This document shows, piece by piece, positions 39,001-47,939 of a DNA stretch of 48,499 bases. Numbering within the stretch: position 1 is the first letter of the stretch; every line of letters starts with the position of its first letter. The DNA lies in NCBI GenBank assembly GCA_036339735.1, contig JAYZAL010000003.1:1-48499 (forward strand), read 5' to 3'. The DNA is from Candidatus Poribacteria bacterium. Its GTDB lineage: Bacteria; Poribacteria; WGA-4E; UBA9662. The position numbers were made by a program.

Positions 39001-42000
39001 GATTTTACCTTGATCATACCAATCTAAAATACGTTGCATATCAAGACGCAAGTTTGCTGATCCATAAAAAGAGCCAACTAATCGTTTCTCGCTTCGTACT
39101 AGATCTTGAGCTGGAATCTGAATATTAGCCGAAGGCTCTGCAATTCCAATTACCACTGTCATGCCACCTGGGCGAGTCACTTGGTAAGCTAAGTGGGTAG
39201 TTTCTGGTTGGCCAATTACTTCAAAAGCATAATCAACGCCCTTTCCATCTGTCAATTCTGTCATGATTTCTTTCGGGTGGGTGCGAGAAGCATTAATGAT
39301 ATCTGTAGCACCGAATTGTTGAGCGTAATCTAACTTCTTTTGCACTAAATCAATGGCAAAGATGCGTTCGGCTCCGGCTATCCTTGCTCCTTGAATCACG
39401 TTCAGCCCAACACCACCAACGCCAATTACAGCAACCCATTCACCAGATTCTACTTGAGCTGTGTTGATGACTGCTCCTATACCTGTAGTTACACCACACC
39501 CAACTAGGGCCGCTTTTTCTAGAGAGTAATCTGAAGAGATCTTAATTAGACTATTTTCTGAAACAACAGCATAATTGGACATGGTTCCAATTCGAGCCAT
39601 CTGTGGAATTGACTGCCCACTCCTATTAGTAAATCGACAAGTATTATCTAAAAGGAAACCACTGTTAGCCAAAATTCCCTCGCATAGAACGACTCGATCA
39701 GACTGACACATTCGGCATAAACCACAATAAGTTACAAAAGATAAAATGGCGTGGTCTCCCGGTTTGACATAGGTTACTCCTTGCCCTACAGCCTCAATTA
39801 CTCCTGCCCCTTCATGACCTAGAACAATAGGCAGATCGTAACGGATTGTACCTTTCACAACCGACCAGTCAGATTGGCAAATACCACTAGCACCCATTCG
39901 GACAAGAACTTCGCCATCTTTTGGGGGTGCCAAATTTAGATCTTCGACGACAACGGCTCCACCATACTCATATACAACTGCCGACCTACACTTCATTTCT
40001 CACTCCCGTTATTTGTATTAATTTATCCTATTTCCCACTTTCTGAGAAAAATTACATACAGAATCTCCGAATTCGACTCCAAGATAGCATATATTTATGC
40101 CTGATTTTTACAAAATTTAAAGCGAAAAACTCTAATCTCCTTTTATTCAGCTCAAACAAAAATCAGTGAGGTTAATATAAACGGACTCTGAAACGTCTTC
40201 TATATTAGTTCAGGAATCTAAAAATTAACCTAGGAAATATTTACTGATTAGCTGTCGACGTTAATCAGTTGATGTAGGTTTTTGGGTGAGCTTAATATAG
40301 CACAGTCAATTCTAAAGAAACTCTATTTTTTTGATACTGAACGAATGATATAATAGTTGCTGAGTGTTAATATTTTTTTCGAATTCTCAAATATTATCGT
40401 ACGATGTCAGATAGATTAATCATTAAATAGGATAATGTAATCTGGATTTTCAGTTGTCGTAAACGTTGGTTGATTTCATTCCGTTGATTTCTAGTAGGCA
40501 TCGAAAGTAACACTCTGGTAGTTAATGTTGTTTCGGTGACCAAACCAGAGGCCAATCAAAAGTGCTAACAAGGGTTATTTTTGATCGTTATTCTTAGTTA
40601 CTTCGGTCGTTTTTCTGACATTCTCGTTGATAAACGATTTTTGCTTCACTCTTTTATTTTAGGCTTTTTCGTTCTTTCCTTGGCCTGGGGCGGAGTTATA
40701 ACCAAGGACGCCGCACTAACACAAGCGTATGAGAAAGTTGTCACCGGTAATTCTTCTCCTCCTTCTACCTTCAATTCCAAAGATAATTCGAAACGAATCT
40801 TTCTAGAAAAACCAAAAACTTTACAGCCTTGGCTACATTCACCAACTCATCTAAAATCTCACGCATTGAAAGATGAATTGGAACCACCACACTATATTAG
40901 GCAGTATCTTTACTCTTTGAATCGATGGAAACGTGTTCCCCAGTTTGTAGACCTCAGTGAATTATGGGAATACGACCCCAATCAAGTAGACAGTGAAGTC
41001 GATCAAGACGGGTTTGACCTTCCTCTCAACTCAAATCTAAAAATTACTGGTCATAAATCTGTTACGGTTGAACTCAATAAGACACATTACTTCGGCCAAA
41101 CTGATCGCTATAGCTTTTACGGTATGAATAGTGGGTATAGTAGCTCATATAATTCTGGCCTCGATTTAGGATTGAACTCATCTTATGGGGATTCTTATTC
41201 TAGCTATGGTAACTATGGTGGTGGATATGATTCTTTTAGCGGAGGTGGTTTCGGTGGTAGTAGTTATGGTGGATATGGAAGTGGCTTTTCAATGTCTCGC
41301 GGTGGCGCACCTAGAGCTAGTGGTATTAACATTCGTCAGACCCTACAAGTTGGATTACACGGGAGAGTCGGTGAACATACTCACGTAGAAGTCGATTATA
41401 GTGATTCAGGAGGTGACTCATACGGAGGGAGTAGTTATGGCGGCTACAGTGGTGGTGTTGGTGGAGCTAAACAGCAAAAGATCCGAGTCTGGTATGAAGG
41501 GAAACCTGAAGGTATCCTGAGACGAGTCGCCTTTGGCGATATTATGCTTAATTTACCAAATACACGTTTTCTAGATATTAACCGCAATTTATTTGGTTTG
41601 GAAGCTATTGCAGAGTATAAAGGCGCCAAATTAACAGCCTTTGGTTCACGTTCTAAAGGCATAACAGACCGGCGAAGATTCAGAGGTGAATCTCGCCGTG
41701 CCGGTTATGGTAGGGGACAACAGGTAGCCGACCATAATTACGTCAAAGAGCGGTTTTATTTTATTCAGCTAGGTGAAGATGGGTTACTTCATGATTCGTA
41801 TTTACCTATCAAAAAAGGTAGCGAGCAAATCTATATTGATGATGGAGTTGCTAATAACAATCAGGGCGGACAGAGAACAGTAAATGGTTATTTCAATCTA
41901 CAGTACCCAGGCCAGGACTACAATATTGACTATGAAACGGGAGAGATTGAATTTCTTATTTCGATGTCTCCTAGTTATAAGATTGTGGCAGCATATGAAT

Positions 42001-45000: not shown

Positions 45001-47939
45001 GTGGCGAAGTTTGGGTTAACGATATCCATTTGAGTGATCCGTTGGTCAAATCAGGATGGGCGAGACGTGGAAATTTGTCAATTGAGTTGGGGCGTATACT
45101 CAAAATTCAAGGTGGTTTTGCTGGACAAGATAAGGATTTCGAGAGTTCTGCTGGTCAAACAAGCAGGCAAAGTATGTATGATCGTGGCTATAGTACCACT
45201 AATAATGATTACAATCTTAACAGTGATATTACTTTGCTGAGTTGGTTACCCATTCGATATTCGATTAGCCATCAGGAGACTGAAACAGAAAATCGGAGGG
45301 GTTCAATTAGTTCATATCAAAGTGGGAAAAGTGAAACCCTAAATCGTGATATTTCGATACAGTTCAGCCGTCCAAAATGGCCGATGTTGGGCTTTGCTTA
45401 TAATAAGCAAGATTTTTGGAATGAACGTCAAGGTTCACAATTAAGTGATCTTTATACAGGAACTTTCCGTTACAGTATTGGACAACGTATTGGATTAGAT
45501 GTTCAGTACCGGCATGAAGATGTCGACTCCGATACATCCACTGCGAACTCAACAAACACTAGTCGCTCTAGTTATGGTGGATATTATGGGTATAATCAAG
45601 ATGAAAAAGTAGATACAGGTTCAGTTTCTTTCAATCTACAACCCTTCGATAGCCTTAGTCTCAACACGCGTTACGATATCAGGAGAGAATTAGAAAAAAA
45701 AGGAAGCAGACAATCTTCTAGGTCTTATAATTCTTACGGAACTTATTCATCATACGCTAATCAATCGATTAGCAACCCGACAGAGCAAGAAACCGAATCA
45801 AAAGCAGATAGTGAAGAAATTTATACATTAGCAGCTAGGGAACACCGATTTTCAATTAATCCTCGTATCAATAGGGACTTACTTGGTTTACGACCAACAA
45901 TTACCAACCAAGTTAGTTTTAGTGAGAATTGGTTCGGTGAGTCGAAAGACGCATCAATCAATGCTAACATTCGTTTGGGGCTTGGTATACGCCCAAAGTC
46001 TTGGTTCGGCTGGCTATTGAACCCTAAACCTAATACTAGTGAATCTAGCGAGCTATCATTATTCGAAAAAAATACAGATGAAGAACAATTTGAGGAAGAG
46101 ATTAAGCAACAAGATAGACTAAACCAACTAGAAGATATAGGAATTACCCAAGAAAGTGTTGAAAATGCTGAAAGCCTTAAAGGCGATTGGATACAAAAAG
46201 AAAAGAAAAAAATGGATCAAAAAATGGCTTTACGAAATGGCCTGGACCAAGAAAAAAGGACCGGATTATTTCAAAGAAGTCTTGAATCATTATCATTAAA
46301 TACTGATATCAGTTTCAACACTCAAGACTACCTCCGACAATTAGAATCTGGGGATTCTTTTCGTGATATTCTTGAGTTTGATGAAGGAGATAAGCGACGT
46401 TCACGAGCTAGAACTGGTACTCGATACAATTTTCGTGCTTCAGTAGATCCCTGGTCTTGGGCATCAATCAGCGGAAATTATTCACATAGTGATAGCTTTA
46501 TGAAGTCTTCCAGTACCTCATCTAAATCAAATACGACTAGTTATGATAGTAATCTCAAGTTATTCAATGCTAAGAATACTTCTACCTTGCAATTACGTTA
46601 TAGATATATGACGCGAGACCATAGTAATATAAATGCTAGAATTGGCGGAAGCCTCTCTCATGAACCTTCGATTAGCTGGCGCCATGCTTGGCAAGGCGGA
46701 AGTAGAACTACCATTGGTGTACGAACAACTCTCCGTGACCAAGAACGGGCTGGCATCGATAGCTTATCGTTTATAATCACACCTAGTTTCAATGTAGATT
46801 ACAAACTTAGTATTGAAAGTGGTATTCGTATTCCCTTTCGACGGAAAGTCATTAAACTAGAGCATGACCTTGATTTGAGTAATACGTTCTCAACAGTAAT
46901 TCGTCGTGAACAATTTGGTGCTAACAGAGAAGAGCGATCAGAACGTTATGAGACTACGGTACAAATGCGATATAACTTGAGCACCAAACTAACGGCTAAT
47001 TTGAATTTAGGCGTTAGTTACAATCAAGATCATGTAGAGGAAGGACGCGATTACTTGTCTATTGCCAGTTCATTAACTGTAAGAGGTGAGTTCCGGTAGT
47101 TGGTCATTTTAACACAAACTAACTGGGTGCCAAGCTAACTGGTGCTAACAGAGAAGAGCGATCAGAACGTTATGAGACTACGGTACAAATGCGATATAAC
47201 TTGAGCACCAAACTAACGGCTAATTTGAATTTAGGCGTTAGTTACAATCAAGATCATGTAAGAGGAAGGACGCGATTACTTGTCTATTGCTGACAGTCAA
47301 TCTAAACACGAATTTTCAGGCAAAAAAAAACCCAGCAACGACCTACTTTCCCACGGGGTCTCCCCCGAAGTATCATCAGCGCTGAAGGGCTTAACTGCCG
47401 TGTTCGAAATGGGAACGGGTGGGACCCCTTCGCTATAGTCACTGGGTAAATCTTAAATCCGCCTGAACAAAAAATAAATTATGTACATCAGGCTTATAAT
47501 TACGGTGCATTCACCTAATGTTAGATGAATGCGATTCTATGAAACATTGAAAACTGTGCTTATATTTAGCAAGGACCTTGTTAAAGATGAACGAAATATT
47601 GCAAAAAAGTCAAAGCCTTCGGATTATTAGTACCAGTCTGCTGAATATGTCGCCACACTTACACACCTGGCCTATCAACCTCCTTATCTCGAAGGATCCT
47701 TATCAGATTAACTCTGTGGGAAATCTCATCTTGGGGTGGGCTTCACGCTTAGATGCTTTCAGCGTTTATCCCTTCCAAACATAGCTACCCAGCGGTGCCA
47801 CTGGCGTGACAACTGGTGCACTAGAGGTTTGTCCACCACGGTCTTCTCATACTAGCAGTAGCTCCCCTCAAATTTCCTGCGCCCATAGAAGATAGGGACC
47901 GAACTGTCTCACGACGTTCTAAACCCAGCTCACGTACCA

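Follow-up and report, generated by a model that had tools for sequence, protein, structure and literature searches.

The window analysed here, a stretch of 48,499 nt of Candidatus Poribacteria DNA, contains a 6.5-kb open reading frame (ORF) of 2172 aa, stop included, which the initial annotation had described as a divergent homologue of SprA/Sov, the outer-membrane translocon of type IX secretion systems (T9SS). TTG is the first possible start and no in-frame ATG lies nearby. The gene sits amid housekeeping genes and is solitary, no T9SS partner adjoining it, as sprA usually is. GC content is even through the window (0.38-0.43). The assembly is a draft of 107 contigs that is 92% complete with an estimated contamination of 2.4%. 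Short contigs mapping to the gene number 33 and come from four marine RNA libraries (four studies); 20 have identities of at least 99%. This is a weak hint of expression rather than proof of transcription.

Table 1. Features of the SprA-like gene and its direct surroundings, with positions counted along the window.
Feature	Position	Strand	Basis or remark
SprA/Sov-like outer-membrane translocon gene	40581..47099	+	ORF, TIGR04189, hhalign, orthologues across phylum
Hydrophobic N-terminal stretch, ~residues 20-38	40638..40694	+	by eye from translation
Gly/Ser/Tyr-rich low-complexity insert 1, ~residues 181-297	41121..41471	+	translation; pLDDT <50
N-terminal SprA-homologous core	41469..43373	+	three TIGR04189 pieces
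TIGR04189 piece	41469-41765	+	profile positions 163-256
TIGR04189 piece	41892-42716	+	profile positions 372-673
TIGR04189 piece	43137-43373	+	profile positions 710-792
Gly/Ser-rich low-complexity insert 2, ~residues 717-814	42729..43022	+	hhalign template gap; pLDDT <50
Asp/Glu-rich repeat region, ~residues 1041-1135	43701..43985	+	invariant D/E columns, alignments A1 and A2
Best-scoring piece against curated SprA model	43932..45263	+	TIGR04189 profile positions 1083-1502
C-terminal run of ~24 long antiparallel beta-strands, residues ~1473-2169	44997..47087	+	AF2 model, pLDDT 73.2
Charged helical insert breaking strand run, ~residues 1806-1903	45996-46289	+	AF2 model
Direct repeat of the gene's last 150 nt (46916-47065), one extra base	47140..47290	+	non-coding as it stands

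The hydrophobic stretch near the N-terminus (Table 1) is a putative Sec signal peptide core. Insert 1 mostly precedes the alignment with SprA, since the hhalign match starts at residue 245, and insert 2 lacks a counterpart in bona fide SprA according to hhalign. The homologous core is the well-folded part of the model of the N-terminal half (pLDDT 75-92). The Asp/Glu-rich repeats, which gave a weak EF-hand-type match (E 0.1) in a PDB search, possibly bind calcium. The C-terminal strands are read as the wall of a barrel on the basis of the predicted model; a 2018 structure paper reportedly describes SprA as one barrel of 36 strands that is capped on the extracellular side and opens laterally. 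The repeated copy of the gene end is located between the stop codon and a 5S rRNA gene.

Direct searches with the single sequence gave limited results. TIGR04189 matched in four stretches with an E-value of 6.7e-39 and 133 bits, exactly as annotated before, which falls short of the SprA equivalog cut-off of 200 bits; the same model scores 466-2788 bits in FCB genomes. No Pfam family matched at E<=1, including the SprA N-terminal domain PF14349, and phmmer against the PDB returned nothing beyond a chance match (E 1.6), both in agreement with the initial annotation. PF14349 is, by eye count and again as claimed, precomputed on 56 of the 120 listed homologues, namely on 38 of the 99 close and 18 of the 21 distant ones. 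The latter 21 are the closest relatives beyond the Poribacteria clade and match with E-values of 2e-47 to 5e-20; 18 of the 21 score 466-789 bits and so pass the SprA cut-off. The protein is only ~20-25% identical to its nearest bona fide SprA sequences.

Homology was established at profile level, using a mixed profile (A1), a Poribacteria-only profile (A2) and a profile of bona fide SprA (A3). A2 and A3 were aligned by hhalign with a probability of 100% and an E-value of 1e-130 over 1562 columns, collinear over most of their length (242-2078 of 2088 with 202-1980 of 1990). When searched against the PDB, A1 identified SprA (6h3i_A, E 4.7e-170, chain positions 48-2048 and 2163-2397) and A2 had no match at E<=1. 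The protein was also folded as two separate models, comprising residues 100-1150 and 1000-2172. Chains of Flavobacterium johnsoniae SprA were the four best Foldseek matches for both the N-half (E 4e-26 to 2.6e-16, next 7.6e-4) and the C-half (E 2.3e-26 to 1.7e-21, next 1.7e-6), hence SprA is the closest solved fold of either model by this method. With VIA-align 772-821 residues of the C-half model align to SprA chain positions 985-2401; since MtrB (Z 17.8), CymA (16.1) and FecA (15.9) outrank SprA (13.6-14.2), it is aligned length alone that here sets SprA apart from generic outer-membrane barrels. TM-scores of the half-models to SprA are low (0.18-0.35) because the halves were folded in isolation. 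The ORF is a genuine, full-length, strongly diverged homologue of SprA/Sov, as TIGR04189, hhalign and Foldseek agree, which supports the initial annotation. It is similar in size to the proteins from F. johnsoniae and Porphyromonas gingivalis (PDB 6H3I, 6H3J, 8GL6, 8GL8), which measure ~2400 aa, and, unlike these, carries two Gly/Ser/Tyr-rich disordered inserts.

The gene is a constant of the phylum. Where 31 of 31 genomes had been claimed before, we found one orthologue per genome, of ~2020-2340 aa, in 61 of 61 Poribacteria genomes from 14 genera. The frame is intact in 59, many of these on a single contig, and interrupted or split between contigs in G019 and G006. Some orthologues have an N-terminal LysM domain, and homologue records are named Candidatus Poribacteria. 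In a phylogenetic tree the Poribacteria proteins form one clade separate from all FCB sequences and share one side of a branch with 100% support with SprA-like proteins from Elusimicrobiota, a grouping that may partly reflect long-branch attraction, given that the tree was made with FastTree from a quick alignment.

As in organisms with bona fide SprA/Sov, PorV-family barrels, PorU-like peptidases and cargo tagged by a C-terminal sorting domain (CTD) of type A co-occur with the translocon. The PorV family model NF033709 (PorV_fam) identified eight ORFs over its cut-off of 90; the best, on contig C104, scored 187.5 bits and has PorV (6h3i_F, E 1.1e-6) as its best PDB match, both values in line with earlier ones. 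None of the genome's PorV-like proteins reaches the equivalog cut-offs, the best scores being 91.9 versus 250 for PorV, 86.1 versus 220 for PorQ and 143.9 versus 325 for PorV2. The family had been claimed at cut-off for 31 of 31 Poribacteria genomes; its wide occurrence stands, with 29 of the 31 at E<=1e-40. PorV_fam is not T9SS-specific, because it is also found in the Bacteroides thetaiotaomicron control, a genome without a SprA match.

Two PorU-like proteins of ~2050-2070 aa, each with its own type A CTD, are encoded on contigs C38 and C16. The pieces matched by NF033707, as previously reported, score 38.6+280.9+115.6 and 272.7+75 bits respectively; over the whole protein C38 obtains 420.0 bits, a borderline score that only just reaches the cut-off of 420; C16 remains below it with 358.4 bits. 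The best PDB match of the C38 protein is PorU (6za2_A, E 4e-33), with gingipain R behind (7e-15). Its C25 core has the His and Cys motifs of PorU (PDB 6ZA2): GHG and SC, which we take to be the catalytic residues, align with both PorU and RgpB. The solved PorU chain has 1156 aa, considerably fewer than the Poribacteria proteins. PorU-like proteins were found in 31 of 31 Poribacteria genomes with two to three paralogues each.

Regarding cargo, the curated type A model TIGR04183 matched 45 times at E<=0.01, with 42 matches over cut-off, and no type B CTD was found over cut-off in the genome. Forty-four matches could be placed in ORFs, and each of these terminates no more than 22 residues before the stop codon. 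The terminal type A tails of the initial annotation are confirmed, but its numbers, which came from an HMM of its own, come out lower with the curated model: 45 matches rather than 54 proteins and, for the 44 placed in ORFs, 72,527 rather than 82,567 aa in total and 11 rather than 12 of the 19 ORFs of at least 2000 aa. Many of the CTD proteins exceed 1000 aa. Some PorV-like genes (NF033709; PDB 6H3I chain F) directly adjoin CTD genes, and three out of 12 PorV-like ORFs have a CTD ORF no more than 2 kb away (mean of random draws 0.61; three or more in 51 of 2000 draws). This pairing of PorV-like genes with type A cargo resembles the pairing of PorP/SprF genes with type B cargo in Bacteroidota.

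The SprA-like proteins from Elusimicrobiota (P0104, P0105, P0109; loci L116-L177) have similarly low TIGR04189 scores of 121-133 bits and are shorter, ~1770-1870 aa. All eight Elusimicrobiota genomes contain PorV_fam (17-27 matches each, compared with eight ORFs in the Poribacteria genome) and CTD matches (10-17 each), and, as read by eye, 14 of the 22 CTD matches listed first have a PorV_fam match no more than 1 kb away. Unlike in Poribacteria, a PorU-like gene was found in none of the eight, so the SprA-like subfamily does not always come with the full attachment set.

Other T9SS parts were searched for in the same genome. No orthologue of GldM, GldL or GldN was detected with curated, Pfam or our own models, which for GldM agrees with the initial annotation and for GldL and GldN covers the PorL and PorN that it had left unsearched. 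TIGR03513, TIGR03517, PF22827 and PF12081, which describe the GldL/GldM motor, had no match where the positive control did. Six gldKLMN operons of controls served to build HMMs that, run with filters off against all 8368 ORFs, gave best E-values of 0.21 for GldM and 0.036 for GldN. A GldL candidate from this screen (E 2.4e-5) was rejected, having a signal peptide and a single C-terminal membrane helix. Matches to the GldK model correspond to ordinary FGE-sulfatase proteins, in pieces of at most 117.5 bits versus a cut-off of 350. PorP/SprF reached only E 0.0455, matches to PorZ were confined to its CTD tail part, and PorW/SprE gave only TPR-type noise, as it did in 12 of 14 controls. The Poribacteria genome differs in this from SprA/Sov systems, lacking detectable GldK/L/M/N, SprE/PorW, PorP and PorZ. 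Neither the proton-driven motor (PorL/GldL-PorM/GldM) nor the periplasmic ring (PorK/GldK-PorN/GldN), which make up the inner-membrane and periplasmic core, is detectable in it. The evidence spans the outer-membrane half of a T9SS and not the complete canonical system.

Passages of Kamke 2014, which read as the initial annotation had cited them, report that Por structural genes were not found in Poribacteria and leave the export route of the CTD proteins open; the library of papers searched contained none tying the SprA-, PorV- or PorU-like genes to this gap. Given the SprA homology, its conservation throughout the phylum and the co-occurrence with PorV-family, PorU-like and CTD proteins, these genes are sound candidates for the missing structural genes, as had been proposed. 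We consider it likely, with a probability of roughly 0.7, that the ORF is the Poribacteria SprA/Sov, a giant beta-barrel that lets T9SS cargo cross the outer membrane, and that CTD cargo is exported over the outer membrane in T9SS fashion with PorV/PorQ-family and PorU-like partners. The ~42-45 proteins with a type A CTD would be exported by Sec into the periplasm, where the sorting domain would direct them to the SprA-like barrel for passage. The PorV/PorQ-family barrels (eight paralogues), some encoded beside likely cargo, may then take over the cargo laterally, upon which a PorU-like C25 cysteine peptidase, itself CTD-bearing, would remove the sorting domain and the cargo would be released or fixed at the surface.

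A complete canonical T9SS, with a GldL/GldM motor and GldK/GldN ring that diverged beyond the reach of sequence models, is possible yet rather doubtful. SprA itself scores only 133 bits where FCB genomes reach 466 or more, therefore shorter partners would be the first to escape detection. The reach of the gld models is also narrow: TIGR03517 was found in just 10 of 34 SprA-positive genomes of a sample from the phylum Bacteroidota, and of 13 other SprA-bearing genomes not one had Pfam GldM_1st or GldL_N over cut-off, nor did any of 17 match Pfam GldN; all three matched in control G089. Since the models are silent in most other SprA-bearing genomes too, absence of gld genes from Poribacteria is unproven. 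The genome also has ~35 proteins with the FGE-sulfatase fold, the fold of GldK. However, the unfiltered screen of every ORF yielded no convincing GldM or GldN, the lone GldL match has the wrong architecture, the Pfam models matched in none of seven Poribacteria genomes, and no conserved candidate pair lies beside sprA-, porV- or porU-like genes.

The barrel might instead have a different role in the outer membrane, for instance in envelope biogenesis, in uptake or in anchoring a surface layer, its T9SS likeness being ancestry and the CTD proteins leaving by some other way. The undetectable core parts, the long separate branch shared with Elusimicrobiota, the lack of PorU-like genes in the latter's eight genomes and the fact that PorV_fam can exist without SprA fit this idea, which we nevertheless regard as unlikely. 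In Poribacteria as in Elusimicrobiota the barrel is accompanied by many type A tails and by PorV-family genes, CTD genes pair with PorV-family genes, and the homology to SprA is collinear nearly end to end, beyond what a generic barrel would show; moreover there is no known alternative by which the CTD proteins might leave the cell, the passages in Kamke 2014 having left their route open. An artefact, be it FCB contamination of the assembly or a decaying pseudogene, would be in keeping with the fragmented draft, its estimated contamination and the 150-nt duplicate just downstream of the gene, but is close to refuted by the intact orthologues in 59 of 61 genomes, many on single contigs, by the clade apart from FCB sequences, by the Candidatus Poribacteria names of the homologues, by the even GC content and by the open frame of 6.5 kb.

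The preferred reading, outer-membrane export of T9SS type, answers the gap stated in the passages of Kamke 2014: a diverged SprA homologue is present in a phylum said to be without T9SS machinery, and this SprA-like pore probably exports the many tail-tagged giant surface proteins of Poribacteria.

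Type IX secretion (T9SS) is described as a Bacteroidetes system: Abby 2016, in the part of the paper available, reports it in Bacteroidetes only (60 of 97 genomes), several abstracts confine it to the same phylum and a 2024 mini-review, in its accessible part, places it in the FCB superphylum. Kamke 2014 (PMC3909097) described Por-type tails (TIGR04183) on many poribacterial eukaryote-like proteins and, at least in the passages available, did not find the structural Por genes or secretion machinery, leaving the pathway 'to be revealed'; the initial annotation had quoted these passages correctly. 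In the literature searched, where most subscription journals were missing, neither Poribacteria nor Elusimicrobia were found linked to T9SS genes. Two other papers name Poribacteria in the introduction or reference list only and, in the parts available, tie T9SS to other taxa, and where papers mentioning both Elusimicrobia and type IX secretion were examined, the co-mention was in reference lists only. The sprA-like gene explored here belongs to a diverged SprA lineage, as its representative in Poribacteria.

No Pfam family matches the SprA-like protein at E<=1 and phmmer against the PDB sequences gives a chance match only. The SprA/Sov model TIGR04189 is its sole NCBIfam match (four stretches, E 6.7e-39; 133 bits, below the cut-off of 200), in agreement with the figures first reported for this ORF, and substantial pieces of the model occur in no other ORF of the genome (4.32 Mb, 107 contigs, 92% complete). 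A homologue search with the protein identified 126 proteins, the best 120 of which underlie the following figures. The matches listed include some 100 close relatives at 38-96% identity, most of them 1300-2390 aa long; four of those with a named source are called Candidatus Poribacteria. A sharp gap separates these relatives from 21 distant homologues (E 2e-47 to 5e-20, 22-27% identity). TIGR04189 scores 18 of the distant homologues over its cut-off, at 466-789 bits, and three at 121-133 bits, like the protein of the window. Some orthologues (P0078-P0083, P0089 and P0093) carry a LysM peptidoglycan-binding domain (PF01476), which the window's protein lacks.

A mixed profile of Poribacteria and distant sequences matches Flavobacterium johnsoniae SprA (6h3i_A) in the PDB at E 4.7e-170 over almost the entire chain. 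A profile made of Poribacteria sequences only has no PDB match at E<=1, which counts against an easy SprA assignment. Profile-profile comparison was judged fairer than the latter search: the Poribacteria-only alignment matches that of 18 bona fide SprA sequences with a probability of 100% and E 1e-130, with 1562 columns aligned between columns 242 and 2078 of 2088. Homology with SprA is therefore collinear and reaches the C-terminus, the only large unmatched parts being two Gly/Ser/Tyr-rich stretches.

The protein was also folded as two overlapping halves, using 37-row alignments. The model of residues 1000-2172 (pLDDT 73.2) shows some 24 long beta-strands within the last 700 residues; that of residues 100-1150 (pLDDT 59.5) combines a good core with two low-complexity stretches that are disordered. 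In Foldseek, four SprA entries are the top four PDB matches of each half, with E-values of 2.3e-26 to 1.7e-21 for residues 1000-2172 (next-best match 1.7e-6) and 4e-26 to 2.6e-16 for residues 100-1150 (next-best match 7.6e-4). TM-scores to SprA are low (0.18-0.35), and the Z-scores of VIA-align do not single out SprA (13.6-14.2), since ordinary barrels such as MtrB (17.8) rank above it; here SprA is distinct solely by aligned length, 772-821 residues onto chain 985-2401. We read these low scores as expected for half a giant barrel folded in isolation, and the 36-strand architecture is putative. Taken as a whole, the window's protein is almost certainly a true SprA homologue.

The gene is surrounded by housekeeping genes, which include those for a zinc-type alcohol dehydrogenase, a thiamin pyrophosphokinase and a mannitol dehydrogenase-like protein, and GC content is uniform along the window. 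There are no ORFs 3' of the gene because the contig ends within an rRNA operon. A scan for promoters and terminators around the gene gave sites no commoner than in shuffles. The final 150 nt of the gene are duplicated past the stop codon, 224-225 nt downstream, as two exact blocks, one of 121 nt and one of 30 nt, parted by a single additional base; in two other genomes (G058 and G049) brief echoes of the C-terminus occur 2-3 kb away from the orthologues. Four marine metatranscriptome libraries from four studies contain 33 short contigs on the gene, 20 of which have at least 99% identity. Such contigs report presence only, as DNA may occur in RNA libraries, and uncovered stretches of the gene are uninformative; the contigs are a weak hint of transcription. 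One of these contigs crosses the stop codon into the second 150-nt copy. Near-identical contigs over window positions 40000-47300 (four studies) indicate that the organism or a close strain occurs in marine samples.

Coordinates of the sprA-like gene, neighbouring features and genes on other contigs of the same genome
Feature	Contig	Position	Strand	Remark
sprA-like ORF	C3 (window)	40581-47099	+	2172 aa, TTG start
150-nt segment, first copy	C3 (window)	46916-47065		within sprA-like gene
RNA-library contig	C3 (window)	46960-47193		
150-nt segment, second copy	C3 (window)	47140-47290		
5S rRNA gene	C3 (window)	47330-47446	-	
23S rRNA gene, 3' part	C3 (window)	47606-48499	-	contig terminates within rRNA operon
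CTD protein gene	C11	58489-59256		255 aa
FGE-sulfatase gene	C11	59264-60400		
GldL-HMM match	C11	31298-32542		rejected
FGE-sulfatase-fold protein gene	C42	16048-17472		ends in type A CTD
FGE-sulfatase-fold protein gene	C75	29417-31051		ends in type A CTD
Giant CTD protein cluster	C66	47282-56356		
Giant CTD protein cluster	C100	11732-41767		

An orthologue is present in all 61 sampled Poribacteria genomes (14 genera, 8 families). In 59 of them its frame is intact and about 2020-2340 aa long; in the remaining two it has an internal stop (G019) or is split over contigs (G006). Relatives of P0118, a bona fide SprA, are found in records from Zixibacteria, Ignavibacteria, WOR-3, Hydrothermota and Bacteroidota; the corresponding search identified no related loci for P0101 and P0103, which are among the nearest bona fide SprA relatives, or for P0121. 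The three low-scoring distant homologues are from Elusimicrobiota, where 62 loci (L116-L177) were found that encode a SprA-like protein of about 1770-1870 aa with 121-133 bits for TIGR04189. A FastTree phylogeny was built from a quick alignment of 37 rows and 1597 columns, 12 of 49 rows being left out. Poribacteria (9 rows) and Elusimicrobiota (8 rows) each form one clade, and a branch with 100% local support sets the two together apart from all FCB-type SprA. Long-branch attraction may contribute to their grouping.

The eight Elusimicrobiota genomes examined that carry the SprA-like gene (G108-G115) all have matches to the PorV family model NF033709 (17-27 each) and to the type A C-terminal sorting domain (CTD; TIGR04183, 10-17 each). 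There, CTD genes and PorV-family genes are often adjacent pairs: for 14 of the first 22 CTD matches listed, a count made by eye, a listed PorV-family match on the same strand is no more than 1 kb away. At E<=1e-20, no PorU-like gene was found in any of the eight genomes. Since PorV-family and CTD proteins accompany it in Elusimicrobiota and Poribacteria alike, the diverged SprA subfamily travels with carriers and tags in two non-FCB phyla, and this co-occurrence is the best argument for a continued role in CTD export.

In the Poribacteria genome under study eight ORFs are over the PorV/PorQ family cut-off. For the best of them, a 375-aa protein on C104 with 187 bits, the PDB gives a single match, F. 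johnsoniae PorV (E 1.1e-6); none of the PorV-like proteins reaches the equivalog cut-offs of PorV, PorQ or PorV2. Of 31 Poribacteria genomes, 29 have strong family matches (E<=1e-40); the family also matches in the Bacteroides thetaiotaomicron control, a genome without a SprA match. Two PorU-like proteins of 2068 and 2051 aa score 420.0 bits, exactly the cut-off, and 358.4 bits, and both end in a type A CTD. The top PDB match of the one on C38 is PorU (E 4e-33), with gingipain R behind at 7e-15, and its GHG and SC motifs, presumably the catalytic residues, align with those of PorU and RgpB. PorU-like genes are present in all 31 Poribacteria genomes. A 486-aa gene adjoining the PorU-like gene on C16 was rejected as a T9SS part, as it resembles DUF1501.

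TIGR04183 has 45 matches at E<=0.01 in this genome, 42 of them over the cut-off, and no type B CTD is over its own. The 44 matches that fall in ORFs all end within 22 residues of the stop (37 within 15); these ORFs add up to 72,527 aa, and 11 of the genome's 19 ORFs of at least 2000 aa are among them. Of 12 PorV-like ORFs, three have a CTD ORF no more than 2 kb away, a number reached in 51 of 2000 random draws (mean 0.61). On C100 a 3440-aa CTD protein is followed by a PorV-like gene, and a second PorV-like gene by a 466-aa CTD protein; C66 offers a further example. The clusters on these two contigs comprise giant CTD proteins (4209, 3440 and 2336 aa), PorV-family genes that follow them immediately downstream and a LysM protein; the arrangement resembles a dedicated pairing of cargo and carrier for type A tails. 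No T9SS partners were found beside the sprA-, porV- and porU-like genes, the neighbourhoods of which hold housekeeping genes only.

Motor and ring parts were also searched for. GldM, GldL, GldN, PorP/SprF, PorZ and PorW have no credible match in the genome, and Pfam GldM_1st and GldL_N match in none of seven Poribacteria genomes. The GldK model picks up about 35 ordinary FGE-sulfatase proteins, none of whose pieces exceeds 117.5 bits (cut-off 350). The FGE-sulfatase-fold proteins on C42 and C75, which have the GldK fold, look like cargo rather than ring parts; on C11 an FGE-sulfatase gene directly adjoins a gene for a 255-aa CTD protein. HMMs built from six control gldKLMN operons and run without filters over all 8368 ORFs gave best E-values of 0.21 (GldM) and 0.036 (GldN). 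The one GldL-HMM match, on C11 (E 2.4e-5), was rejected for its wrong architecture, one membrane helix and a coiled coil in a secreted-type protein.

How these negatives are to be read depends on the controls. In a Bacteroidota-phylum sample of 41 genomes the GldM model TIGR03517 matches in 10, which shows that the search is effective, and Pfam GldM_1st, GldL_N and GldN all match in control genome G089. In the same sample SprA is over its cut-off in 34 of 41 genomes, 24 of which have no TIGR03517 match. In 13 more genomes with SprA, from Ignavibacteria, Zixibacteria, WOR-3, Hydrothermota and other groups, neither GldM_1st nor GldL_N is over its cut-off, with a weak GldL_N match (19.3 bits) in two, and Pfam GldN matches in none of 17 SprA-bearing genomes. 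The compared genomes G061-G107 allow two readings: narrow gld models, or frequent occurrence of SprA without GldKLMN outside Bacteroidia. Since the models are silent in many accepted FCB carriers of SprA, non-detection in Poribacteria reflects real absence or divergence beyond the models. That a GldLM-type motor is present and went undetected seems rather unlikely to us, and we hold it equally doubtful that the motor is truly absent and export energised otherwise. Only tentatively do we propose the wider scenario, in which Poribacteria and Elusimicrobiota would keep a distinct non-FCB SprA lineage with PorV-type carriers and type A tails, without GldLM motor or GldKN ring; SprA export would be energised otherwise or not at all, and Bacteroidota would have added their motor and ring later, to an older, simpler system of pore plus carrier.

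We favour the reading that the sprA-like product works as a CTD translocon, with a probability of roughly 0.7. Most likely the protein would be the pore in the outer membrane through which a T9SS-type route exports the many CTD-tagged giant proteins, and PorV-type carriers and a PorU-type peptidase would cooperate with this pore. The pore can now be named, together with carriers and a signal peptidase as candidates, all of them conserved across the phylum, which closes the gap stated in the available passages of Kamke 2014 and stretches the range of T9SS beyond Bacteroidota and the FCB superphylum. It is probably through the giant CTD surface proteins that the cell meets its surroundings or host. 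The question of energisation becomes testable as well; should the motor be truly lacking, Poribacteria and Elusimicrobiota would be a natural experiment on what SprA and PorV can do alone.
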